Shown here piece after piece: positions 3,757-61,002 of a stretch of 64,000 nt of DNA (positions within the stretch are counted from its first letter, which is position 1; every line of letters begins with the position of its first letter). Both the position numbers and the translations under genes were made by a program. Under the pieces are notes generated by a model that saw nothing but the letters and a program-made list of their open reading frames with translations, did no database searches and was not told the origin of the DNA. Origin of the DNA: a candidate division WOR-3 bacterium (GTDB taxonomy: Bacteria; Hydrothermota; Tepidihabitantia; SM23-42; JAOAFX01); assembly GCA_037443805.1 (NCBI GenBank), contig JBBINQ010000008.1, positions 3,075-67,074 on the forward strand, read 5' to 3'.

Positions 3757-5082
3757 ATGCAAGGTATAAAGAATCTCTCCGCCAGCACAAAATTTAAAAA
3801 AACACCCATCGGCGAAATTCCGGTTGACTGGAGCGTGGTTAAACTGGGTGATGTGATTTCTTTATTTCAAAACGGCATTTGGGGTGAAAAGCCATCCGCG
3901 AATGATATGTCTTTTCCAGTGATAAGATCAACAGAAATAACGTATGATTGTAAGATCAATGTCGCAACGGTAGAATACAGAAAAGTTCCTGAAGATAAAG
4001 TAGACAAATATAAATTAAAGGATGGTGATATACTTATAGTATCTTCAAGCGGTTCACCGCACTTAATCGGCAGAGTAGCACAATTCAAACACAATGCTAC
4101 TGATAAGCAAACATATTTATTCTCCAATTTTATGATAAGAATAAGACCTCAAGGTATAAATTCAACATTTTTGTTCTACTACTTAAATTCCTATTCGTAT
4201 TTTTGTTTCTTGAAAAATCTTCAGCAGACATCAACTGGATTAAGGAACTTACCGAGAACAGAGCTAATCAATTTTTATGTTCCCTTACCACCGCTATCTG
4301 AACAAGAAAAAATTGCTGCGGTTCTTACCTCTGTTGACGATACCATAGAAAAAACCCAGCAATTGATTGAACAGACAAAAAAACTGCAGAAGGCATTAAC
4401 CCAAGAACTACTAACCAAAGGCATTCCGGGTTTACACAAAAAATATAAGAAAACGATCTTTGGTGATATACCTGTAGACTGGGAGATTGTAAGATTAGGT
4501 GATGTCTTAATAGTAGTCAAAAATGGCCTTTCTTATAAACAATCACAAAATGCAGGTCGTTATTCAATAACAAGAATAGAAACGATTTCAGAAGGTGTAA
4601 TCAACGCAGATAAGGTTGGATATTTGGATCATTTGACCGATGAAGAAATCAGAAACAATAAATTAACGGCTGGTGATATTTTGTTTAGTAATATTAATAG
4701 TCTTGAACATATTGCCAAGACAGCCATTTATTTATCTTCACATCCGATGTTAATACACGGGATGAATTTATTGCTACTTAGGCCAAATAGAAGCAAAATA
4801 GAGCCATTCTTTCTGCTATTTTATCTTAAATTCAATGAGACGATCAATAGATTTAGACGGTTATCTAAAAAAGCTATTAACCAAGTATCAATTAATCAGA
4901 CTGAAATTAAGAATTTTCTTATTCCACTTCCAAGTCTTAACGAACAGAAATCCATTGTTAATTCTTTGCTCGCAATAGAACATAATCTTGTAGGCTTACT
5001 TAATCAGAAATTACAGATTGAAACCCTAAAACAAAGTCTCATGCAAGTTCTATTGACTGGCAAAGTAAGGTTAAAAAAATAA
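3757..5082 (+). CDS. hsdS: Type I R-M specificity subunit, full length (two TRDs)
   Basis: 441 aa; two conserved spacer motifs (FYVPLPPLSEQEKI...; FLIPLPSLNEQKSI...). Confidence 0.88.
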   Translation: MQGIKNLSASTKFKKTPIGEIPVDWSVVKLGDVISLFQNGIWGEKPSANDMSFPVIRSTEITYDCKINVATVEYRKVPEDKVDKYKLKDGDILIVSSSGSPHLIGRVAQFKHNATDKQTYLFSNFMIRIRPQGINSTFLFYYLNSYSYFCFLKNLQQTSTGLRNLPRTELINFYVPLPPLSEQEKIAAVLTSVDDTIEKTQQLIEQTKKLQKALTQELLTKGIPGLHKKYKKTIFGDIPVDWEIVRLGDVLIVVKNGLSYKQSQNAGRYSITRIETISEGVINADKVGYLDHLTDEEIRNNKLTAGDILFSNINSLEHIAKTAIYLSSHPMLIHGMNLLLLRPNRSKIEPFFLLFYLKFNETINRFRRLSKKAINQVSINQTEIKNFLIPLPSLNEQKSIVNSLLAIEHNLVGLLNQKLQIETLKQSLMQVLLTGKVRLKK

Positions 5083-5113: not shown

Positions 5114-5140
5114 TTCCTCCCCATTGATGGGGGAGGATTA
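5114..5140. repeat. Palindromic element TTCCTCCCC-ATTGAT-GGGGGAGGATTA (copy 1), followed by two degenerate half-copies at 5163-5183 and 5204-5224
   Basis: Near-identical copy at 46861-46887; stem CCTCCCC/GGGGAGG. Confidence 0.7.
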
Positions 5141-42064: not shown

Positions 42065-45000
42065 ATGAAATTTTTCATACCAATTAGCCTTGGTCTTTTG
42101 ATGTCGGGAATCTTAATTAATATTGCAGACTCCCGGCAGAACACAGATATATATCTCAATATTCCATTCGCCGATATGAAAGGTGAACTGGGCAGATGTG
42201 ATGTTGAGATTATGGAGCCGGATAATAATGTAATAGGTAGTATTTCTCGGTATATTTTTATCAATAATGATAATTACTCACTGAAATTGAATATTAAATT
42301 GAAAAAAGAGGTTGGTGATTACGACCTTTTACGCGTGCGTGTCCGTTTTAAAAAATATGAAAAAATCTATTCCCTTTTCCAGTTACAGGATAAGATGATT
42401 GTCAAAATTTTAGGTCAGGATAAATTTATCTCCGGGACACCAATCAATTATCGGATCATTGCAAAAAATCAACGCACTGATGAACCACTCTCTAATGCCA
42501 GGGTAAAGGTTATCTTATTGGCTAAAGACAACGAAAAGATAGTTTATGAAGGGGTTACAGACAATGCTGGCTCCTGTCAGACCAATTTTACCATTCCCGA
42601 GAACATTACCAGTGCCGAACTAAAGTTTATAATAGATTCTGAACTGGGCAAGGATGAGTATACTACAAGCATAAAGATTACAAGTGGAAATTTGACCTAT
42701 CTGGTCACAGACAAACCAATATACCAGCCAGGTCAGACAATTCATATAAGGACCCTGTCTTTACAAAAACCATCTTTGAAGCCCGTAAAGAATAATGATG
42801 TAATTTTTGAGGTTGAAGATGCAAAAGGCAACAAGGTCTTTAAAAAAATTATCAAAACCGATGAATTTGGTGTTGCCTATACGCCATTTTTGCTCGCAGA
42901 TGAAGTCAATTTTGGTAACTGGACAATCCGCGCCATACTGGATAATGAAAAATCAGAAAAGACCGTAAAGATAGAAAAATATGTCCTGCCCAAATTCAAG
43001 ATTGGCTTAAAGACTAATAAAGAGTTTTATCTACCAGGCGAGGTAATAGAAGGTGACTTAGATATCCAGTACTTTTTTGGTAAACCTGTTGCTGATGCAA
43101 AGGTAAAAATCGCAGTCTATAAATTTGATATTGGATTTAATCAGGAGGCTGTGCTTGAGAGTAAGACTGACAAAGATGGAAATTGTCATTTTACATATAA
43201 ATTACCAGACTATTTTGTTGGTGAACCATTAGAAAAGGGCGATGCATTTGTCCGACTTGATATTGAAGTGATAGATAAGGCAAATCACAGCGAAAAGATT
43301 TCCGCAACAAAAAAGGTAGTGCAGGATTTGATAAATATTGCAATTGTGCCAGAAGGGGGTGCGCTCAGACCGAATCTTGAAAATAGAATCTATGTAGTAG
43401 CAAATTATCCAGATGGTTCTCCCTGCCTGGCACAGGTGGAGATGGAGATTGATGGTGTCAGGCTTTCAGGCAAAACAGATGATTATGGTGTTGCAGAGTT
43501 TTTGTATACACCTAAAAAAGAACAGACAGAAATCCTGGTTAGAGCGACCGATAATAAAGGAGAGAGAGCAGAGGTAAAAAAAGATTTCAGTTTAAATTTA
43601 GACCAGGAACAGCTCATTATGCGTATGAAAAGGGGAATCTATAAAGTCGGAGACATCATTGACCTTGAATTTCTTACTACAAAAAATACGGGCAGGGTGT
43701 ATCTTGATATGATAAAAGATAACCAGACCGTGCTGACAAAATCTATTGATATAAAGAATGGCAGAGGGTCATACCAACTCCGTCTCAGTTCTGAACTTAC
43801 CGGCTCAATCTGGTTACATGCCTACATCGTTACCCAGGGTTCAGATATTATAAGGGATACAAGATTCTGTTATGTTCATGGTGCAGATGATTTAAAAATA
43901 GATGTCCAAACTGATAAGAAAGAATATTTACCCGGTGATGATGGTGAAATCGTATTTAAAATCACAGACAGAAAAGGCAAACCAAAGATTGCCGCCCTGT
44001 GCCTGGCAATAGTGGATGAGGCAGTATTTGCCGTAAGTGAGTTACAGCCAGGATTGGAAAAGGTCTACTTTACTCTGGAAAAAGAGATAATGACCCCGCG
44101 TTATGAAATCCATGGATTTGAACCAGCAAATATTGTAAAGAATCCTGTGATTGATGAACGGGCAGAGAATGTAATGTTCTCCACACTCCAGCCCAAAGAG
44201 CCATTTCCTGTGCATTACACAACACCAATAGAAATCGGCGAAAAGATTATCCAGGCATTCTATCCAATGCTTGCTAATCTACGCAATAAACTTTATACTG
44301 CAATAAATAAATATTATGACCGTTATAAAGAATATCCAAAGACCACGAATGCCCTTGAATTATTTATCAAAGAAGGATTAATAAAAGAGACTGACCTGCT
44401 CGACCCCTGGGCAAGAAAATACCGTGTTACCTGTGAAGATGAATACTTCAGTGATTTCGCCCTTGCTTCTGCTGGTCCAGACGGTATCTTTGATAATGAA
44501 GATGATTTAAGTGAATGGAGAGGATGGGGCGGAATGGGAAGGTTTGATGAAATGATGGTTGAAGAAAGGACGATTATGCCAATGGCTGCTCCTGCAAAAT
44601 CAGGTATTGGCAGGGACCAGGATAGAGAAATGCGCCTTGAAGGTCCTGAAGAACCAAGGGTGCGCGAATACTTTCCTGAGACATTTATTTTTGAACCCGC
44701 ACTAATAACCGATGCAAATGGCAGGGCAAAGATTTCTGTGACGATGCCTGATGCAATCACAACCTGGAGAATGACGATGTTTGCCTCTGCCCAGAATGGT
44801 GAACTCGGTTCTGGCTTATCTTCCATAAGAGTATTCCAGGATTTCTTTGTTGATATAGATTTACCAGTTGCCCTGACCCAGGGCGATGAAATATCAATTC
44901 CTGTTGCCTTGTATAATTATCTGCCCAGGCAACAGAAAATAAAGATTGTTTTAGAACACGGCGATTGGTTTGAGATTATGGATAAGGATGAAATAACAAA

Positions 45001-46756
45001 AACGCTAAATAAAGACGAAGTCTCTGTAGTATACTTTCCGATAAGGGTAAAGGAACTCGGCTACCATCCTATTACTGTGAAGGCATATGGTGAGGTAAAA
45101 TCAGATGCAATAAAGAGGAAGATTGCAGTATTGCCTGATGGCAAAAGATTTGAGACAATTATTTCGGACCGACTTGAAGGTAATGTAGTAAAGAAAGTAA
45201 GTTTTCCTGATAATGCAATTCCTGGTGCAAATTCGCTCATTCTTAAACTATATCCAGGTATCTATTCCCAGGTTGTTGAAGGACTGGACAAGATGTTAGG
45301 AATGCCTTTTGGCTGTTTTGAGCAGACCTCTTCAGTAACCTATCCCAATATTCTAATTCTCAATTATCTTCGTCAGACCGAGCAGATTAAACCTGAAACT
45401 GAGATGAAGGCAGAAGAGTATATCAGTATCGGTTATCAGCGACTCCTCTCATTTGAAGTCTCAGGTGGTGGGTTTTCCTGGTTTGGCGATGCACCGGCAA
45501 ATAAGGTTCTCACTGCCTATGGCTTAATGGAATTCAATGATATGGCAAAGGTATACAATATTGATGAGAGGCTAATAGAGCGGACTGCCCAATGGCTAAA
45601 AAATCAGCAGGAAAAGGATGGTTCCTGGGCACCGGATAAACAATATCTGCATGAAGAATCATGGGGTAGAATTCAGCACAGCGAGATTATGCCCACTGCA
45701 TATATTGTCTGGGCACTGGCAGAGATTGGACATAAAGATGGTGCAGCACAAAAGGGACTTGACTATTTGAAAAAGAATTGGACAAAGGTAAATGACCCAT
45801 ATATTCTCGCACTCATTGCCAATGCCTTTGTGGCAATGGAACCAAAAGCAGAAAACACAATTGAAGTTCTGCGTAAACTCGTGGATATGGCAAAAGAGGA
45901 CAATGGTGCTATTTACTGGGAATCAAATATACCATCAATAACCTTCAGCCGTGGAAAGGGTGCAGACATTGAGGCGAGCGGTCTCGCAACCTATGCCCTG
46001 GTAAAATCTGGCAAATTCTCTGATGCTACAACCAAGGCTCTCACATATTTGATACGCTCAAAGGATACATCAGGAATGTGGTACACGACCCAGGGAACAA
46101 TCATTGCATTGCGTGCCCTGGTTGCAGCACTGGGTGGAACTGCCGAAGATATTAATGCAACGGTAGTAGTAATCCATAATGGCAAAAAGGTAAATGAAAT
46201 AAAAATTGATAAGAATAATGCGGATGTGATGCAACAGATTGAACTTGATGAAAATCTAAAAAATGACAATACCGTAGAGATTCAACTCAAAGGCGAAGGA
46301 AATTTCCTTTATGAAATTACAAGCAGTTATTACATACCCTGGAAAGATTTACCAAAACCACCAATGCCGTTATTTGCTATTGATTTAAAATACGACCGCA
46401 AAACCCTTTCAATGAATGACCTTGTGAATGTAGATGTATCTATCAAACTGCTTAAGAGCGGAACTGCACAGATGGTGATGATTGACCTCGGTATTCCACC
46501 GGGATTTGAAGTGCAGACACCGACTCTTGATGAATATGTGAGCAAGAAGATTATCCAGAAATACAGTCTTACTCCGCGCCAGATAATTGTATATATTGAA
46601 TCAATCTCATTAAACAAACCGATTGAAATTACCTATAGTCTCAAGGCAAAGTATCCAGTGCGGGCAAAGGTTATGTCCTCACGCGTTTATGAATACTACA
46701 ATACTGACAAAGAAGCAATTGCAGAACCATTTGAGATTAAGGTGACAAAGGAATAA
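42065..46756 (+). CDS. Alpha-2-macroglobulin family protein
   Basis: 1563 aa; signal peptide; MG domains; thioester-type CxEQ (FGCFEQTSS); A2M receptor-binding-like C-terminus. Confidence 0.85.
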   Translation: MKFFIPISLGLLMSGILINIADSRQNTDIYLNIPFADMKGELGRCDVEIMEPDNNVIGSISRYIFINNDNYSLKLNIKLKKEVGDYDLLRVRVRFKKYEKIYSLFQLQDKMIVKILGQDKFISGTPINYRIIAKNQRTDEPLSNARVKVILLAKDNEKIVYEGVTDNAGSCQTNFTIPENITSAELKFIIDSELGKDEYTTSIKITSGNLTYLVTDKPIYQPGQTIHIRTLSLQKPSLKPVKNNDVIFEVEDAKGNKVFKKIIKTDEFGVAYTPFLLADEVNFGNWTIRAILDNEKSEKTVKIEKYVLPKFKIGLKTNKEFYLPGEVIEGDLDIQYFFGKPVADAKVKIAVYKFDIGFNQEAVLESKTDKDGNCHFTYKLPDYFVGEPLEKGDAFVRLDIEVIDKANHSEKISATKKVVQDLINIAIVPEGGALRPNLENRIYVVANYPDGSPCLAQVEMEIDGVRLSGKTDDYGVAEFLYTPKKEQTEILVRATDNKGERAEVKKDFSLNLDQEQLIMRMKRGIYKVGDIIDLEFLTTKNTGRVYLDMIKDNQTVLTKSIDIKNGRGSYQLRLSSELTGSIWLHAYIVTQGSDIIRDTRFCYVHGADDLKIDVQTDKKEYLPGDDGEIVFKITDRKGKPKIAALCLAIVDEAVFAVSELQPGLEKVYFTLEKEIMTPRYEIHGFEPANIVKNPVIDERAENVMFSTLQPKEPFPVHYTTPIEIGEKIIQAFYPMLANLRNKLYTAINKYYDRYKEYPKTTNALELFIKEGLIKETDLLDPWARKYRVTCEDEYFSDFALASAGPDGIFDNEDDLSEWRGWGGMGRFDEMMVEERTIMPMAAPAKSGIGRDQDREMRLEGPEEPRVREYFPETFIFEPALITDANGRAKISVTMPDAITTWRMTMFASAQNGELGSGLSSIRVFQDFFVDIDLPVALTQGDEISIPVALYNYLPRQQKIKIVLEHGDWFEIMDKDEITKTLNKDEVSVVYFPIRVKELGYHPITVKAYGEVKSDAIKRKIAVLPDGKRFETIISDRLEGNVVKKVSFPDNAIPGANSLILKLYPGIYSQVVEGLDKMLGMPFGCFEQTSSVTYPNILILNYLRQTEQIKPETEMKAEEYISIGYQRLLSFEVSGGGFSWFGDAPANKVLTAYGLMEFNDMAKVYNIDERLIERTAQWLKNQQEKDGSWAPDKQYLHEESWGRIQHSEIMPTAYIVWALAEIGHKDGAAQKGLDYLKKNWTKVNDPYILALIANAFVAMEPKAENTIEVLRKLVDMAKEDNGAIYWESNIPSITFSRGKGADIEASGLATYALVKSGKFSDATTKALTYLIRSKDTSGMWYTTQGTIIALRALVAALGGTAEDINATVVVIHNGKKVNEIKIDKNNADVMQQIELDENLKNDNTVEIQLKGEGNFLYEITSSYYIPWKDLPKPPMPLFAIDLKYDRKTLSMNDLVNVDVSIKLLKSGTAQMVMIDLGIPPGFEVQTPTLDEYVSKKIIQKYSLTPRQIIVYIESISLNKPIEITYSLKAKYPVRAKVMSSRVYEYYNTDKEAIAEPFEIKVTKE

Positions 46757-46795
46757 TAAGAAAATTCATTCTGTTAATTTTCTTTCTTTATACGG

Positions 46796-46843
46796 CTGGA
46801 GTAAGGAGTATGTAGTATGTAGTTTGTATCCAGTATCATTTCC
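46796..46843. repeat. Heptad minisatellite copy A (AGTAAGG AGTATGT AGTATGT AGTTTGT ATCCAGT ATC...)
   Basis: 7-nt period; the same ordered degeneration as copies B and C. Confidence 0.7.
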
Positions 46844-46860
46844 TGAGTCCTCCCCACTTT

Positions 46861-46887
46861 TTCCTCCCCCTTAATGGGGGAGGATTA
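46861..46887. repeat. Palindromic element TTCCTCCCCC-TTAAT-GGGGGAGGATTA (copy 2)
   Basis: 8-bp stem; near-identical to 5114-5140. Confidence 0.7.
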
Positions 46888-46987
46888 AGGTGGGGGTGTT
46901 GCACATTGTGTCTACTAAAGTTTCTATTCCATTTTCACATATGTTAGGAATAGAGGCTTTAGCCTCGTTAAATCCTTCATAAGCATA

Positions 46988-47067
46988 TTCCAGTGCATGG
47001 CACTAACTTCCAGACGAAGTCTCACTTCCAGTGCTTCGCACTCCTTTCCAGTTCCGCAGGAACTCAC
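46988..47067. repeat. Array of four tandem ~20-nt units, each TTCCAG followed by a short hairpin with a different stem sequence
   Basis: Units begin at 46988, 47008, 47026 and 47046; stems AGTGC/GCACT, AGAC/GTCT, AGTGC/GCACT, AGTTCC/GGAACT with 3-nt loops. Confidence 0.6.
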
Positions 47068-47069
47068 AT

Positions 47070-47100
47070 CTTTATCCAGTATCGAGTATCAAGCATCATT
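47070..47100. repeat. Heptad minisatellite tail copy A2 (ATCCAGT ATCGAGT ATCAAGC ATCATTC) abutting the promoter
   Basis: Same ATCMAGT heptads as the 3' part of copies B and C. Confidence 0.6.
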
Positions 47101-47104
47101 CCCT

Positions 47105-47132
47105 ATTGACAAAGTTCAATATATATATAGAA
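47105..47132 (+). promoter_or_regulatory. sigma70-like promoter (TTGACA-16-TAGAAT) for the 47154 ORF
   Basis: TTGACA 47105-47110; AGGAGG RBS before ATG 47154. Confidence 0.45.
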
Positions 47133-47153
47133 TATTATATATAGGAGGTTGCT

Positions 47154-47354
47154 ATGGCGAATGAGAAGACCAATGAATCATTGTTTGCAAATATGGATGA
47201 AGCAGCACAGAAGGCAAAAGAAGAATTTGACCAGATGCCTGAGGATGTGAAAAAAACTTTTGCTGTCTGGATGAGAAAATGGTATCTTAAAGCAGGTTAT
47301 CGCAGATTAGGAAGGATTGCGGTTTCCTATGCAAAATCTTTGCAAAAAACATAG
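47154..47354 (+). CDS. Hypothetical small protein
   Basis: 66 aa; strong RBS AGGAGG; no recognisable domain. Confidence 0.45.
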   Translation: MANEKTNESLFANMDEAAQKAKEEFDQMPEDVKKTFAVWMRKWYLKAGYRRLGRIAVSYAKSLQKT

Positions 47355-47387
47355 TTAAATCATTGCGCGAGATAAACAGGGGGCAGA

Positions 47388-47939
47388 ATGATATTTGATG
47401 ATATGGAAGATACTGAAAAAGGACCATTTTGTAAGCCTTTTGGACAGTTATTCTATGATAATCTTGAAAAGATGCCCTCATTTCAAATTGTTGAAGCCTA
47501 CCTTGCCTGCCTCTTAGATGCACAGGACAAAATTCAGAAAGCAATCAATATTCTTGAAGGTGCCTTAAAAAAAGGGACTGAGAGGTTAAAACAGATAGAT
47601 AATCCAGCAGAACTCCAGTTCTTTTTTGGCAAGATTACTGGAGCGCGGGGTGAAATTGAAAAGGAGATTGAGCGACTCTCCCATCATCGCAGGGAACTTG
47701 AACATTTAATCTCAGAATATTCTGAAAAAGGATTGTTCAATGTGCCATTAAAAGATTTTATGATTACCTTTGATGCTGAGTATCCAATAAAGGTTGAAAA
47801 GAAACACATTGATAGTGATGAGTGTTATATCACTGAAATAAAGGCTCCAGACCTGGTGGGTTGTGCTGGTTTTGAACATTTAAATAGAGTAATGACCGGT
47901 TATATCTTAAAAAAGCTCCTTGCAAAAAAGGAAGGATGA
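47388..47939 (+). CDS. Hypothetical protein
   Basis: 183 aa; coding-like composition; no recognisable domain. Confidence 0.5.
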   Translation: MIFDDMEDTEKGPFCKPFGQLFYDNLEKMPSFQIVEAYLACLLDAQDKIQKAINILEGALKKGTERLKQIDNPAELQFFFGKITGARGEIEKEIERLSHHRRELEHLISEYSEKGLFNVPLKDFMITFDAEYPIKVEKKHIDSDECYITEIKAPDLVGCAGFEHLNRVMTGYILKKLLAKKEG

Positions 47940-47940
47940 G

Positions 47941-48060
47941 AGGAATAGGAGGAAGGAGTAGGGAGTAGGTAGTAGGGAGTAGGTAGTATGTAGTAAGTAG
48001 TAGGTAGTAAGTAGTATGTAGTTTGTATCAAGAATCAAGTATCGAGTATCCGGCATCCAG
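47941..48060. repeat. Heptad minisatellite copy B (AGTAGGT AGTAGGG AGTAGGT AGTATGT AGTAAGT ... AGTTTGT ATCAAGA ATCAAGT ATCGAGT ATCCGGC ATCCAGT)
   Basis: About 17 consecutive 7-nt units; + strand C-free for ~90-115 nt. Confidence 0.8.
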
Positions 48061-48061
48061 T

Positions 48062-48101
48062 TTACATAATTCCACTTACGATTACATAATTCCACTTACG
48101 A
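48062..48101. repeat. Perfect tandem duplication of 20-bp unit TTACATAATTCCACTTACGA; second copy ends in palindrome CCACTT-ACG-AAGTGG
   Basis: 48062-48081 is identical to 48082-48101. Confidence 0.85.
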
Positions 48102-48142
48102 AGTGGGAAAGAAGGTATTCTATTCTTATTGCTATGGTATAT

Positions 48143-56722: not shown

Positions 56723-57006
56723 AGCAAATTCTATTGAATTTTTGGACTATGTCAATATAACCATTCTGCTAATCGTAATTCGTTATACGGTTGCGAAAAG
56801 CGTTTCGTGAATCGTCAAGAGTCTATGGTTATATACACAAATAACCATACCCTTAACCGAAACGGGCATCGTTACCATAGCCTCTTACCCATTTCCCTTA
56901 ACCATAAACCATACCGGCATCCACGCCCTATATAATTAAAATACCTAAAAGTCCAAAACTTGTCCTGATGGATATCAGGATACCTAAATGCCAAAAGGGA
57001 AACGAT

Positions 57007-57047
57007 CTCCCTCAGTCCCCCTTTACCAAAGGGGGAGTGAGGGGGAT
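57007..57047. repeat. Long near-perfect inverted repeat CTCCCTCAGTCCCCCTTT-ACC-AAAGGGGGAGTGAGGGGGA (related to the CCTCCCC/GGGGAGG element)
   Basis: ~18-bp arms, one mismatch and one bulge; 15 bp upstream of the lysA promoter -35. Confidence 0.7.
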
Positions 57048-57061
57048 TTTAAAAATATTAC

Positions 57062-57089
57062 TTGACTTTTTTTGAAAAATATATATAAT
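57062..57089 (+). promoter_or_regulatory. sigma70-like promoter (TTGACT-16-TATAAT) for the lysA leader
   Basis: TTGACT 57062-57067, TATAAT 57084-57089. Confidence 0.6.
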
Positions 57090-57095
57090 GAGCAC

Positions 57096-57164
57096 ATGCT
57101 AAAATATTTTAAGAGATACTGGATGAAGAAGCATGTCCTAAGGATGGGCTTTTCGTTCCCATGA
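57096..57164 (+). CDS. Candidate leaderless 22-codon leader peptide (MLKYFKRYWMKKHVLRMGFSFP) of a transcription attenuator
   Basis: ATG 6 nt after the -10; four Lys codons including tandem AAG AAG. Codons 16-19 contain GGATGGGCTT, a near copy of the terminator's right arm. The stop lies 20 nt before the terminator stem. Confidence 0.3.
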   Translation: MLKYFKRYWMKKHVLRMGFSFP

Positions 57165-57184
57165 TAGAGCGTTTTATGGACGAT

Positions 57185-57212
57185 AAGCCCACCAGCAGGT
57201 GGGCTTTTTTAT
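57185..57212 (+). terminator. Intrinsic terminator / attenuator hairpin (AAGCCCACC-AGCA-GGTGGGCTT, then TTTTTT) within the lysA 5' leader
   Basis: 9-bp stem plus T-run, 33 nt upstream of lysA ATG 57245 and its GAGGAGG RBS. Confidence 0.75.
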
Positions 57213-57244: not shown

Positions 57245-58465
57245 ATGCAGGATAGCCTAAAAACATTGCGCAGGTATCTTAATAAAGAAACGGTTGAAAC
57301 ACCTTGCTATGTGTATGACCGAATAAGGATAATAAAAAATATTGAAATCTTGAAGCAGCATTTTTTGAAAATTGCCAAACTCTTTTTTGCAGTAAAGGCG
57401 AACACCAATATCGCTATATTAAAATTGATAAAAAGCCAGGGTATTGGTGCTGAGGTAGTCTCACCCGGTGAAATTTTTGTCTGCCTTAAAGCGGGTTTCA
57501 ATCCAGATGAAATTCTTTATAATAATGTCGCACGCAAGATAGAAGAAATTCTATATGCACTTGATAATGGTGTAATTTATTTTAATTTTGAAAGCATTGA
57601 CCAGGCAATCCTCCTGGAAAAAGCAGCAAAGATGCGCGCCAGAAAAATAAATATCTTTGCCCGTATAAACCCTGGCATCTTTTCCAAAACCCATCCGCAT
57701 CTTTCTACTGGCTCTAAATTCAGCAAATTCGGGATGACAATACAAGAGATAAAACAGAGTCTTTCATTAATAAAAAGATTCAGATATGCGAAATTGGTCG
57801 GCATCCACTGCCATATTGGTTCTCAAATACTATCTCCAGAACCATTTGTCAAGGCGAGCAAAAAGGTTGGGCAAACAATAAAATTACTTAGAAGGAATGG
57901 CTTTGATATTAACTATGTAAATTTCGGTGGTGGGTTTGGTGTTCCTTATCTGCCCCAGGAAAGACCTCTTGATTTTAAACCCATTATTGACTGTTATGGC
58001 TCAATAAAGGATAAGTATGAGGTAGAAATAATGCTGGAGCCAGGAAGATTCTTTGTCGCAAATGCCGGCTATATTCTTAGCCGTTTGATTGATAAAAAAA
58101 CAAGGAATCATATACCAGTATATATGATTGATGCAGGTATGACCGAGAATCCCAGGCCTGCGCTCTATGATGCGTATCACCATATTGAGCCATTATGTAT
58201 TAACTCAAACAAACGGATAAAAGTGCGCGTTACAGGTCCGCTCTGCGAAAATGCAGATGAGTTTGGATACTATTCTCTGCCCAATCTGAAACTTGGCGAG
58301 TATGTTCTAATTCATAATTCTGGCGCCTATACAAGGACTATGGCATCAACCTATAATGGAAGACCTTTGCCCGCAGAATATCTGATTGATAATGGTATAA
58401 AATTAATAAAAAGAAAACAACCTTTAAAAGGATTGATTGAAGATGAACAATATCAGAGTTTTTAA
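57245..58465 (+). CDS. lysA: Diaminopimelate decarboxylase (PLP-dependent, Orn/DAP/Arg decarboxylase family)
   Basis: FAVKANTN PLP-lysine motif, GGGFGVPY, EPGR; followed by lysC and ddh. Confidence 0.85.
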   Translation: MQDSLKTLRRYLNKETVETPCYVYDRIRIIKNIEILKQHFLKIAKLFFAVKANTNIAILKLIKSQGIGAEVVSPGEIFVCLKAGFNPDEILYNNVARKIEEILYALDNGVIYFNFESIDQAILLEKAAKMRARKINIFARINPGIFSKTHPHLSTGSKFSKFGMTIQEIKQSLSLIKRFRYAKLVGIHCHIGSQILSPEPFVKASKKVGQTIKLLRRNGFDINYVNFGGGFGVPYLPQERPLDFKPIIDCYGSIKDKYEVEIMLEPGRFFVANAGYILSRLIDKKTRNHIPVYMIDAGMTENPRPALYDAYHHIEPLCINSNKRIKVRVTGPLCENADEFGYYSLPNLKLGEYVLIHNSGAYTRTMASTYNGRPLPAEYLIDNGIKLIKRKQPLKGLIEDEQYQSF

Positions 58466-59699: not shown

Positions 59700-60720
59700 T
59701 AAAATAAAAGTTGCAATTGTTGGTTATGGAAATCTTGGTCGGGGCGTAAAAGAAGCGATCAATAAAAATAGCGATATGGAACTTACAGAGATTATAACGC
59801 GCAGACCCGATTCAATAAAAAAATCAGTTAAAAATATTCCTGTTTTTAGTATGGATAAATTTGAAGTCCTTGCTGATGTAGCCATCCTCTGCGGTGGTTC
59901 AAAAGAAGATATTTTCGGAACCGAGAATAATACACTTGAAAAGATTAGAATAAATAATCCATATACACATGGTCAGGGGCTCTATTTTGCCCAATTTTTT
60001 AACACGGTGGATAGTTTTGATACACACAAAAGGATTCCTGATTATTATCGCCAGATAGGTCGGATAGCGAAATTGAACCGGCATACATCAATCATCTCTG
60101 CAGGCTGGGACCCCGGCACTTTTTCTCTGGAAAGGGTTATGGCTGATGCATTTATGCCTGAAGGCAGAAATTATACATTCTGGGGACCAGGAATAAGTCA
60201 GGGACATTCTGATGCAGTGCGCCAGGTGCCTGGAGTTCTGGATGCAAGGTCATATACCATACCAATAAAGAGTGCCTTAAAAAAGGTCAGGCAGGGCAAG
60301 AATCCTGTCTTAAGACCAGGCCAGATGCACAAGCGTGTCGTCTATGTGGTTGCCCACGACGATGCAGACAAAAATGAGATTGCTGATAAAATAAAAAAGA
60401 TGCCCAACTATTTTGCTGACTATGATACAAAAGTAATCTTTGTTTCTCAGGATAAATTGAACAAACAGCATAAAGGCTTTCCCCATTGTGGTTCAGTAAT
60501 ATTCTCTGGGAACACAGGAAATCATAATAAGGCATTCATTGAATACAATTGTTTATGGGATAGCAACCCTGAAGCAACGGCGAACATCCTTGTTGCCTGT
60601 GCCCGTGCCTGCTACCGATTAAATAAGGAAAAGAAATATGGCGCCCTAACAATGCTGGAAATCCCACCGTTATACTATTCAATCCACAATAAAGAAGAAC
60701 TGCTTGAGAACTATATGTAG
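59689..60720 (+). CDS. ddh: meso-Diaminopimelate D-dehydrogenase
   Basis: VAIVGYGNLGRGV, SAGWDPGTFSL, FWGPGISQGHSDA closely resemble Corynebacterium Ddh. Confidence 0.88.
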   Translation: MENSKIKVAIVGYGNLGRGVKEAINKNSDMELTEIITRRPDSIKKSVKNIPVFSMDKFEVLADVAILCGGSKEDIFGTENNTLEKIRINNPYTHGQGLYFAQFFNTVDSFDTHKRIPDYYRQIGRIAKLNRHTSIISAGWDPGTFSLERVMADAFMPEGRNYTFWGPGISQGHSDAVRQVPGVLDARSYTIPIKSALKKVRQGKNPVLRPGQMHKRVVYVVAHDDADKNEIADKIKKMPNYFADYDTKVIFVSQDKLNKQHKGFPHCGSVIFSGNTGNHNKAFIEYNCLWDSNPEATANILVACARACYRLNKEKKYGALTMLEIPPLYYSIHNKEELLENYM

Positions 60721-60977
60721 TAGGCAGTGGTTAGTAGGTAGTATGTAGTAGGTAGTAAGTAGGGAATAATGAAACCAAACAGATGCAGTATCGCTTCGCT
60801 TGCAGTATCATCTATGATTGGAAGGGTAATAATGGGTTATCAAGGGGAATCAGGGGATGGGAGGATATGTGGATGTGAAGTTGAGTGTTTGCGTGGATAT
60901 GAAGATGGGATGATAGTAAGGAGTAAGTAGTAGGTAGTTTGTATCAAGTATCCAGTATCAAGTATCCAGCGTCCAGT
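60718..60977. repeat. Heptad minisatellite copy C (AGTAGGC AGTGGTT AGTAGGT AGTATGT AGTAGGT AGTAAGT ... purine/T-rich spacer ... AGTAAGG AGTAAGT AGTAGGT AGTTTGT ATCAAGT ATCCAGT ATCAAGT ATCCAGC GTCCAGT)
   Basis: Starts within the ddh stop codon; strongly C-poor + strand; ends 25 bp before the -35 at 61003. Confidence 0.8.
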
Positions 60978-61002
60978 TGAAAATGGTCTGTTTTTTAATA
61001 TA

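Follow-up and report, generated by a model that had tools for sequence, protein, structure and literature searches.

What is the row of small hairpins that lies between an alpha-2-macroglobulin (A2M) gene and the next promoter in a genome of candidate division WOR-3, and what keeps it folded? The DNA analyzed here, called the window, is a stretch of 64,000 nucleotides of contig JBBINQ010000008.1 (GenBank assembly GCA_037443805.1). An initial annotation, made from the letters alone, had noticed in it four tandem TTCCAG-hairpin units and had offered three explanations: a structured small RNA, a landing pad for a transcription factor, and a novel element resembling repetitive extragenic palindromes (REPs). 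We found that the array is a single copy from a family of dispersed intergenic repeats that is specific to WOR-3 and defined by structure, that selection for pairing on the strand that reads TTCC (in the lineage of the window, the sense strand of the flanking genes) keeps its hairpins, and that it has been gained, lost or replaced between close strains, within tracts of short repeats. From these observations we infer how the hairpins may act, as RNA or as single-stranded DNA, and how they may spread.

Four tagged hairpins in a row

The array occupies positions 46988 to 47067 of the + strand and consists of four tandem units of 20, 18, 20 and 22 nt, each built of the tag TTCC, a perfect hairpin of 4 to 6 bp with a 3-nt loop, and a 3-nt linker free of G. 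Unit 1 (46988 to 47007) has the stem AGTGC/GCACT, the loop atg and the linker AAC; unit 2 (47008 to 47025) has AGAC/GTCT, gaa and CAC; unit 3 (47026 to 47045) repeats the stem of unit 1 around the loop ttc and ends in CCT; and unit 4 (47046 to 47067) has AGTTCC/GGAACT, gca and CAC. Two of the loops are thus of the type GNA (gaa and gca), one is of the complementary type (ttc), and one is neither (atg). With TTCCAG starting at 46988, 47008, 47026 and 47046, the 20/18/20 spacing, the stems and the 3-nt loops listed in the initial annotation are all present and all perfect.

Perfect hairpins with a stem of at least 4 bp and a loop of 3 nt start at 0.83% of the positions in the window, and the chance that four consecutive TTCC sites each carry one is ~5e-9 per place. 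The + strand of the window contains 36 TTCCAG hexamers in all, clustering is seen only for these four, and no second run of TTCC-hairpins was found in the 64 kb. RNA folding of 46980 to 47075 gave z = -3.55 for the + strand and -2.14 for the - strand; because units 1 and 3 have the same stem, they pair with each other in the minimum-energy fold, and this cross-pairing is not a feature of the family described below. Units 1+2 and units 3+4 resemble the two copies of a 38-nt duplication that have since diverged (D1; identity 81% over 26 nt).

Only TTCC(AG) is constant among the units, which measure 18 to 22 nt. Having no constant repeat of 24 to 48 nt and no unique spacers, and with periods that are not multiples of three, the array was rejected on its anatomy both as a CRISPR locus and as a coding repeat, in agreement with the initial annotation. 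Rfam 15 gave no match at the gathering threshold in the window, only chance-level matches in 46700 to 47200 at E<=10, and no match on the arrays in 137 kb of family loci.

A repeat family of WOR-3 defined by structure

Genomes, one per species, were scanned with a strict three-unit pattern (TTCCAG-N7-9-CT-NNN, repeated), and metagenomes were searched with TTCCAGTGC-N3-GCACT-N3-TTCCAG. The genome scan returned at least 118 matches, most of them ordinary tandem repeats with a single stem type. Among the matches listed, 12 loci show the anatomy of the window, with several different stems; 11 of these belong to WOR-3, “Candidatus Stahlbacteria” and unclassified “bacterium” metagenome-assembled genomes (MAGs), and the other lies on a contig binned as Syntrophorhabdus. 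Tandem repeats of other phyla that match the pattern never have several different stems, again among the matches listed. The metagenome pattern found 32 contigs, nearly all with multi-unit arrays, while the 26 matches in IMG/VR viral contigs included no multi-stem array and no member of the family. The contig binned as Syntrophorhabdus (CAZXBI010000005.1, locus L061) carries two typical WOR-3-type arrays (AGGC/AGTGC/AGAC/ATTCAC) and is probably a mis-binned WOR-3 contig.

The pooled set comprises at least 67 arrays of 2 to 8 units (typically 4), with at least 143 distinct hairpin units and at least 49 different stems (counted as 5' arms), in a sample that was gathered with patterns derived from the query array and whose copy numbers and taxonomic range are not a census. 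The consensus unit reads TTCC, A(G), 1 to 4 variable pairs, C, a 3-nt loop, G, a complementary arm ending in (C)T, and a 3-nt linker without G (CAC, AAC, CAA, CAT, CCC and others). All four units of the window fit this rule, with TTCC, an A-N...N-T hairpin, a C-G-closed 3-nt loop, a G-free linker and a length of 18 to 22 nt. Their 20/18/20 spacing is the commonest layout of the family, seen 19 times among the matches listed; unit 2 recurs verbatim in a WOR-3 MAG (L071), and an AGTTCC unit, like unit 4, is also found at L155.

From 15 arrays of other genomes, with the window left out, a covariance model (R2) was built that spans three units in succession. It matched the window at 46982 to 47050 of the + strand (69 bits, E=2.5e-15), its sole significant match in the 64 kb. 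With a model that includes the window (R1), 247 kb of family loci gave 89 matches, and loci L001 to L008, the related genomes compared below, gave none. Related genomes have several arrays per contig; the window has one array per 64 kb. The family, a TTCC-tagged dispersed mosaic repeat similar to the REPs and bacterial interspersed mosaic elements (BIMEs) of E. coli, is apparently new: no earlier description was found in the literature searched on WOR-3 or Stahlbacteria repeats and on intergenic repeats with GNA triloops, and the words repeat, intergenic, palindrome and hairpin are absent from the WOR-3 genome papers that were text-searched.

Pairing is selected on the TTCC strand

The initial annotation had taken the change of stems under a kept structure as a signature of selection on secondary structure. 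That reading is borne out, with intrastrand pairing being kept, at the level of the family and not from the four units alone. For a covariation test, we used 60 distinct 20-nt units selected by the spacing of TTCCA only; TTCC is invariant in all 60. In this set 97.7% of cells are paired and 55 changes are double-sided, and the covariation score of 0.542, compared with 0.193±0.019 in shuffles, was reached by 0 of 500 shuffles. Sliding the partners by 1 to 3 columns as a control gave 11 to 42% paired, and an alignment of three hairpins that includes the window is 99.1% paired. Because some pairs are forced by the search patterns, the count was repeated without AGTGC units and without the outer two pairs, and pairing was then 96.7% (20-nt units) and 98.5% (18-nt units) versus ~70% in shuffles. 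At L137, three paralogous arrays carry AGTGC/GCACT, then AGTGC/GCATT with a G·T pair, then AATGC/GCATT.

Two statistics differ between the strands. Among 143 units, 72 have GNA loops (GAA 41, GCA 13, GTA 12, GGA 6) and 7 have loops of the complementary type TNC, and single mismatches are G·T or T·G in 13 cases and A·C or C·A in 3. This loop bias and mismatch asymmetry indicate that the TTCC strand is the one whose folding is maintained. The closing pair is 5'C-G3' in 122 of the 143 loops, and together with it the G and A positions of the loop are conserved, the middle base being variable. A strand test based on energies was uninformative, because GNA bonuses are not part of the nearest-neighbor RNA and DNA parameter sets, which give identical hairpin energies for GAA and TTC loops.

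These statistics bear on a neutral origin, in which a tandem duplication of two units (38 nt) was followed by template switching (quasi-palindrome correction) that keeps the arms complementary without selection. The likeness of units 1+2 to units 3+4 fits such a history, as do the surrounding slippage-prone short repeats with their strain-dependent copy number. However, the conserved loop G and A and C-G closing pair around a variable middle base speak against it, and so do the excess of G·T over A·C, the persistence of the 5/4/5-bp layout across distant WOR-3 lineages, and the single stem type of pattern-matching tandem repeats listed from other phyla. We already disfavor this explanation and regard it as very unlikely.

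The loops also recall a known DNA structure. The oligonucleotide d(GCGNAGC) forms a very stable DNA mini-hairpin with a C-GNA-G signature, whose RNA counterpart is much less stable; mini-hairpins of this type are employed in folded DNA form by the origin of phage G4, by ssiA and by the phage N4 virion-RNAP promoters, where the hairpin has a 5-bp stem and a 3-nt GGA or GAA loop, and the mini-hairpin binds single-stranded-DNA-binding protein (SSB) poorly (PMC13037366). The units share C-G-closed GNA triloops on stems of 4 to 6 bp with these hairpins; those, however, are single, locus-specific signals with known enzymes, whereas the arrays are dispersed and have no known partner enzyme. The arrays could be single-stranded-DNA signals of this kind, extruded by negative supercoiling upstream of a strong promoter or formed on the replication template, and a host enzyme would read them as a hairpin promoter, a priming signal, an SSB-excluding region or a supercoil buffer. 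Such a role would agree with the C-G closure of most loops, half of all loops being GNA, with the match to a motif far more stable as DNA than as RNA, with the promoters that arrays commonly abut or precede, and with dyad composites that place one array on each strand. Yet the partner enzyme remains hypothetical, 4-bp stems are very short for extrusion, and at L072 arrays lie on both strands within 8 kb and are therefore not tied to one replication strand. Moreover, GAA and GCA both count as frequent triloops of natural RNA (PMC4615370), so that the loop bias fits RNA as well as DNA. On balance, a role of this kind seems quite unlikely.

The array varies at its own locus

The A2M gene (42065 to 46756, + strand) encodes 1563 aa with the Pfam domains TED_complement, A2M, MG2 and A2M_recep and has the same orientation as the array. 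As annotated initially, the hairpins lie between this gene and the next promoter, a near-consensus sigma-70 promoter (TTGACA-16-TAGAAT, 47106 to 47133, + strand) that drives an operon for proteins of 66 and 183 aa with its start codon at 47154. Pfam gave no match for the open reading frames (ORFs) downstream of the array, and no sequence identical to the exact 66-aa and 183-aa proteins is on record. The 66-aa protein has 31 homologue clusters, of which the named ones are from candidate division WOR-3.

The array is part of a mosaic block of ~239 bp (46839 to 47077, + strand) in which three hairpin modules accompany it and which folds with an energy of -82.5 kcal/mol (z = -6.5). Its limits are ambiguous inside GTATCNA repeats. 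The left heptamer tract (46800 to 46838, + strand; AGTATGT three times, then GTATCCAGTATCA), in which TRF detects a period of 7 at 46807 to 46828, forms the left junction of the block, and the right tract (47073 to 47104, + strand; TATCCAG TATCGAG TATCAAG CATCATTCCC) follows it. Diverged copies of the heptamer tract, which form a direct repeat (D2, or D2/D3 with 47078 to 47104), flank the block.

In the closest relative (L001; 95% protein identity, with the same gene order from A2M to the 66-aa protein), the block has no counterpart in the alignment: the array and the other hairpins are missing, the junctions lie inside GTATCNA heptamers, and the right tract and the promoter are intact. A second relative (L007; 92% identity) keeps the right part of the block (GGAATAGAGaCTTTAGCCTCGTTAA) and the right heptamer tract, with 48 unrelated nucleotides in place of the array. 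In L002 to L006 (~80 to 83% identity) and L008 (86%), the upstream gene is a different, divergently oriented one, the intergenic region is short, and no array was found upstream of the 66-aa/183-aa homologues. With the block missing from L001 and other sequence standing for the array in L007, the array is a strain-variable element and not a conserved feature of the locus. Conservation in related genomes, which the initial annotation had named as a test, thus holds for the structure of the unit and fails for its position, which is not orthologous.

This variation weakens the idea that a transcription factor or nucleoid protein binds double-stranded TTCCAG sites about two helical turns apart upstream of the promoter at 47106. 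A constant hexamer at a spacing of 18 to 20 bp, 35 to 120 bp upstream of the -35 box, would suit such a landing pad. However, the promoter of L001 is intact without the array, the 18/20 spacing is out of helical phase, and binding to TTCCAG leaves unexplained why palindromes of unrelated sequence covary and why the loops and mismatches are biased to one strand. We therefore consider the landing pad proposed in the initial annotation highly improbable.

The structured small RNA proposed alongside it fares no better. In its broader form, the array would yield a trans-acting small RNA or protein sponge, for example from the minus strand (CUGGAAGUUAG / CUGGAAAGGAG), whose GGA-rich linkers are like CsrB/RsmZ, or else a type III antitoxin-like repeat RNA. 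There are 5 to 6 GGA motifs within 90 nt of the minus strand, and toxin-antitoxin genes are the commonest array neighbors at loci other than the window. Nonetheless, the loop and mismatch asymmetry points to the TTCC strand and not the GGA strand, which contradicts the CsrB-like minus-strand reading; the GGA motifs, found on the minus strand only, sit in linkers and not in loops, unlike those of CsrB/RsmZ; around the array, neither a promoter nor a terminator was found that could give it a discrete transcript of its own; and the locus is not conserved, the array being absent or replaced in close relatives. ToxI-type RNAs consist of near-identical ~36-nt repeats downstream of a promoter and upstream of a toxin gene, an arrangement that differs from units of 18 to 22 nt that vary in sequence and have the promoter downstream of the array. 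A trans-acting RNA is barely credible here.

Genomic context of the arrays

All arrays are intergenic and lie inside short-period repeat tracts that run ahead of strong promoters, the tracts being ACCAGAN heptamers in the metagenome lineage and GTAGTAN/GTATCNA in the window. In the nearest lineage (the metagenome set plus the window), larger hairpins often accompany the arrays. Based on crude ORF calls, the array of this lineage has the orientation of its upstream gene in 40 of 45 cases (the opposite one in 5) and that of its downstream gene in 38 of 45. A median of 95 nt separates the stop codon from the array, and a median of 181 nt separates the array from the start codon that follows; in 20 of 29 cases the array lies closer to the stop codon on its upstream side. 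In one subfamily (L132, L146, L152, L156) the array fills the space from the stop codon to the next -35 box. At L136, L138, L142 and L150 it ends 22 to 37 nt before a start codon and must therefore be transcribed.

It is such positions that suggest a cis-acting RNA selected by the host, with the hairpin row and its tracts as a terminator, insulator or 3'-end stabilizer between A2M and the next operon and with arrays standing in for the intrinsic terminators that the lineage largely lacks. The sense orientation (40 to 5), the closeness to the upstream stop codon, the filled stop-to--35 space of the subfamily and the transcribed arrays before start codons all agree with it. So do the tolerated G·U-type mismatches, the frequency of GAA and GCA among natural RNA triloops (PMC4615370), and the lack of enrichment of canonical intrinsic terminators in the window (15 found versus 15.4 expected); there is no canonical terminator after the A2M gene and no terminator-like site in 46600 to 47400. 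Its weakness is that the array is dispensable at its own locus (L001) and replaced in L007, that there is one array per ~15 operon ends in the window, that the hairpins lack U-tracts and have short stems, and that Stahlbacteria also conserve an array of opposite polarity between co-directional genes. A cis-acting RNA of this kind is the main rival to the reading favored below, though rather unlikely.

A wider claim would make the arrays and their heptamer tracts a phylum-specific functional system, acting as an insulator/terminator or a single-stranded-DNA signal, and not selfish repeats. In one version, WOR-3 may use the hairpin array as a transcription insulator or terminator in place of canonical intrinsic terminators; in the other, the array may be a single-stranded-DNA signal that marks cassette boundaries and promoter-upstream regions and is read by a dedicated putative host enzyme. 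We think it unlikely that the arrays form such a system.

The genes next to the arrays are mostly small accessory cassettes (23S_rRNA_IVP in 11 of 150, DUF433/DUF5615, PIN, HicA, ParE, MazF, MNT/HepT). At metagenome loci such as L133, L137, L148 and L150, an array plus heptamer tracts separates each small cassette from the next in a co-oriented series (DUF433+DUF5615, RelB+ParE, MazF, PD-(D/E)XK_3, 23S_rRNA_IVP), a layout like that of an integron cassette array, although no attC core was recognized. Arrays that separate co-oriented cassettes such as toxin-antitoxin pairs and 23S_rRNA_IVP genes resemble integrons in this respect; they differ in that no single long imperfect palindrome was seen by eye, and many array-flanked cassettes have their own promoters. 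An attC site is an imperfect palindrome of 57 to 141 nt of the form R''(RYYYAAC)-L''...L'-R'(GTTRRRY). By eye, no such R''/R' core pair (RYYYAAC...GTTRRRY) was seen in the window or in L133 (6352 to 6742); GTTAAAT at 46967 to 46973 fits R', with no complementary ATTTAAC seen upstream by eye.

MAG MFD12922 has near-identical array copies at contig ends, and arrays break MAG assemblies because copies sit there. In Stahlbacteria/MFD12922 MAGs a conserved element of ~110 nt adjoins arrays (L041, L090, L107, L072; e.g., L090 355 to 530). It has terminal inverted repeats CCCACACACCTTT...AAAGGTGTGGGG, occurs in both orientations, and may be a miniature inverted-repeat transposable element or a structured RNA. 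The array-rich contig L140 holds a fragment of group II intron D1-D4 at 4256 to 4395 (RF02003, 87.6 bits).

Comparison with known repeats and the favored reading

REPs are palindromes of 20 to 40 bp with a tetranucleotide tag (GTAG or CGTC) at one end; they lie mostly downstream of genes, vary between strains, occur as singletons, dimers or clusters, and in the CGTC class have no known transposase (PMC3733652). The arrays share with REPs and BIMEs the short intergenic hairpin units, the invariant terminal tetranucleotide, the clustering and, plausibly, transcription, and like REPs they are intergenic, mostly downstream of coding regions, and strain-variable. They differ in unit length (18 to 22 nt with stems of 4 to 6 bp), in the tag TTCC, in the GNA triloops, in the different stems arranged head to tail in a fixed order punctuated by the tag, and in the host phylum WOR-3.

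Other families of intergenic repeats share some traits with the arrays. NIME/dRS3 of Neisseria and pneumococcal BOX are likewise modular mosaics of short repeats and small palindromes, with a variable number of modules and a content that differs between strains; the sequences of their modules are unrelated, and they are not known to have a tag-punctuated row of covarying mini-hairpins. Cyanobacterial STRR and SDR elements are likewise lineage-specific heptamer repeats and very small, nested intergenic hairpin repeats, but they have other sequences and belong to another phylum, and SDRs are constant sequences and not units defined by structure.

Of the three options in the initial annotation, the novel REP-like element fits best, and we tentatively favor a composite reading built on it, which falls somewhat short of probable. 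The array would behave like tagged palindromic repeats of the REP/BIME type, with copies gained and lost by events at the DNA level. One route would be recombination between flanking repeat tracts whose duplicated copies bracket the block, as suggested by the direct repeat around it; another would be a putative enzyme that recognizes “tag plus hairpin” on single-stranded DNA. For such propagation or recognition the integrity of the hairpins would be required. Since the array is sense-oriented 3' of the A2M gene and a canonical terminator is lacking there, transcription of the A2M 3' region probably runs into it, and the hairpin row would probably form a polar barrier before the next promoter, by 3'-end protection or damping of read-through, as REPs do. 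This barrier effect would be secondary at a locus that can do without it.

Several observations weigh against the composite reading. No transposase of the IS200/IS605 or RAYT (REP-associated tyrosine transposase) type was found in ~350 kb of array-bearing DNA by phmmer with IS608 TnpA, IS200 TnpA and E. coli RAYT, a negative that is weak because the queries were approximate. The 64-kb window holds one array only, the tag is neither GTAG nor CGTC, palindrome length is 11 to 15 nt in the window and reaches 19 nt in the family, and stems of several kinds follow one another in a fixed order, while REP families are usually uniform within a genome. The units stand head to tail, unlike the inverted pairs of REPINs, which are inverted REP doublets mobilized by RAYTs, and the window copy has no inverted partner. 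In Stahlbacteria/MFD12922, arrays also form inverted composites, in which two different arrays stand head to head, and the orientation of arrays relative to genes is mixed. Two arrays around a short center are a point of likeness to REPINs; their arms, however, carry different stems and therefore cannot form one long hairpin. Stems of 4 to 6 bp, at ~-3 to -4 kcal/mol each, are weak RNA barriers, and in nearest-neighbor energies the GGAA strand is slightly ahead of the TTCC strand, owing to G·U pairs of the linkers. The gathering of the sample with patterns taken from the query array also belongs on this side.

Other hairpins and repeats of the window

The three hairpin modules that accompany the array in the block lie upstream of it. 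A strong G/C-run hairpin (46852 to 46894; core TCCTCCCCC-ttaat-GGGGGAGGA at 46862 to 46884) is absent from the initial annotation, as are the heptamer repeats on both sides of the block. The 8-bp hairpin that it had reported (TCTATTCC/GGAATAGA) is present as the core of a larger inverted repeat at 46915 to 46962, with 16-nt arms (46915 to 46930 and 46947 to 46962) that are 88% complementary. The third, GAGGCT-TT-AGCCTC at 46953 to 46966, overlaps the 3' arm of this inverted repeat. It had been annotated as a perfect 6-bp hairpin, and its sequence is there; however, a 2-nt loop is sterically too small, so that it is effectively a hairpin of 5 bp with a 4-nt loop. L007 conserves the 3' arm of the inverted repeat, and a G>A change there breaks the GAGGCT-TT-AGCCTC hairpin. 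A 30-codon ORF (46890 to 46982, GTG...TAA) with a strong GGAGGA Shine-Dalgarno sequence 5 nt upstream is also contained in the strain-variable block, its end lying 6 nt ahead of the array; this ORF is probably fortuitous, because its reading frame is broken in L007.

The G/C-run hairpin belongs to a small family with copies at 5115 to 5137, 46862 to 46884 and 57016 to 57036 (TCCTCCCC(C)-loop-(G)GGGGAGGA), in which one arm is Shine-Dalgarno-like and the other is like its complement. A comparable hairpin, CCTCCCCCT-tca-AGGGGGAGG, occurs in the Stahlbacteria locus L072 (7245 to 7265).

Polar tracts with a period of 7 nt, running from (GTAGTAN)n through GTAGTTT to (GTATCNA)n, are found in the window at 46800 to 46838, 47073 to 47104, 47950 to 48060, 60720 to 60770 and 60920 to 60985, 10 to 60 nt upstream of near-consensus promoters of the type TTGACA-16-TATAAT (47106, 48142, 61004). 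Their copy number differs between the window and L001, and with a period of 7 the TAG of successive units falls into each of the three reading frames in turn. In other WOR-3 lineages this position is taken by different short-period repeats (ACCAGAN, TAAACGNNC, TTACTTAA). The idea that the heptamers are Rho-utilization (Rut) sites was rejected: it fits the ACCAGAN tracts of the metagenome lineage, not the G-rich GTAGTAN of the window.

Upstream of the secG promoter, at 48066 to 48109, a direct repeat of ACATAATTCCACTTACGA (two copies) ends in the palindrome TTCCACTT-acg-AAGTGGGAA, which resembles a solitary TTCC...GGAA hairpin unit. A low-complexity intergenic stretch of AACCATA and CCTTAACC-like motifs (56840 to 56930) precedes a divergent promoter pair. 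At 57062 to 57089 there is a consensus promoter (TTGACT-16-TATAAT), followed ~100 nt on by an intrinsic terminator with a T-run (57185 to 57206), the only convincing one between 40 and 60 kb, just upstream of an ORF starting at 57246. The interval from 57062 to 57210, which has no Rfam match, is a candidate small RNA or leader/riboswitch.

Implications

WOR-3 is a widespread, almost uncultured phylum whose noncoding DNA is not described in the literature searched. In it we find a repeat family that is abundant and whose definition lies in structure, not in sequence, with covarying stems, a new tetranucleotide tag, and the loop signature of an ultra-stable DNA mini-hairpin. Its covariance model could serve as a lineage marker, and it flags the contig L061 as probably mis-binned. 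The family offers a test case for the origin and spread of tagged palindromic repeats without an obvious RAYT, for rows of short hairpins as terminators or insulators in lineages poor in intrinsic terminators, and for chromosomal roles of small DNA hairpins beyond phage N4 and phage G4. If the arrays and their tracts were a functional system, palindromic repeats would have in them a third “tag class”, served by machinery of its own.

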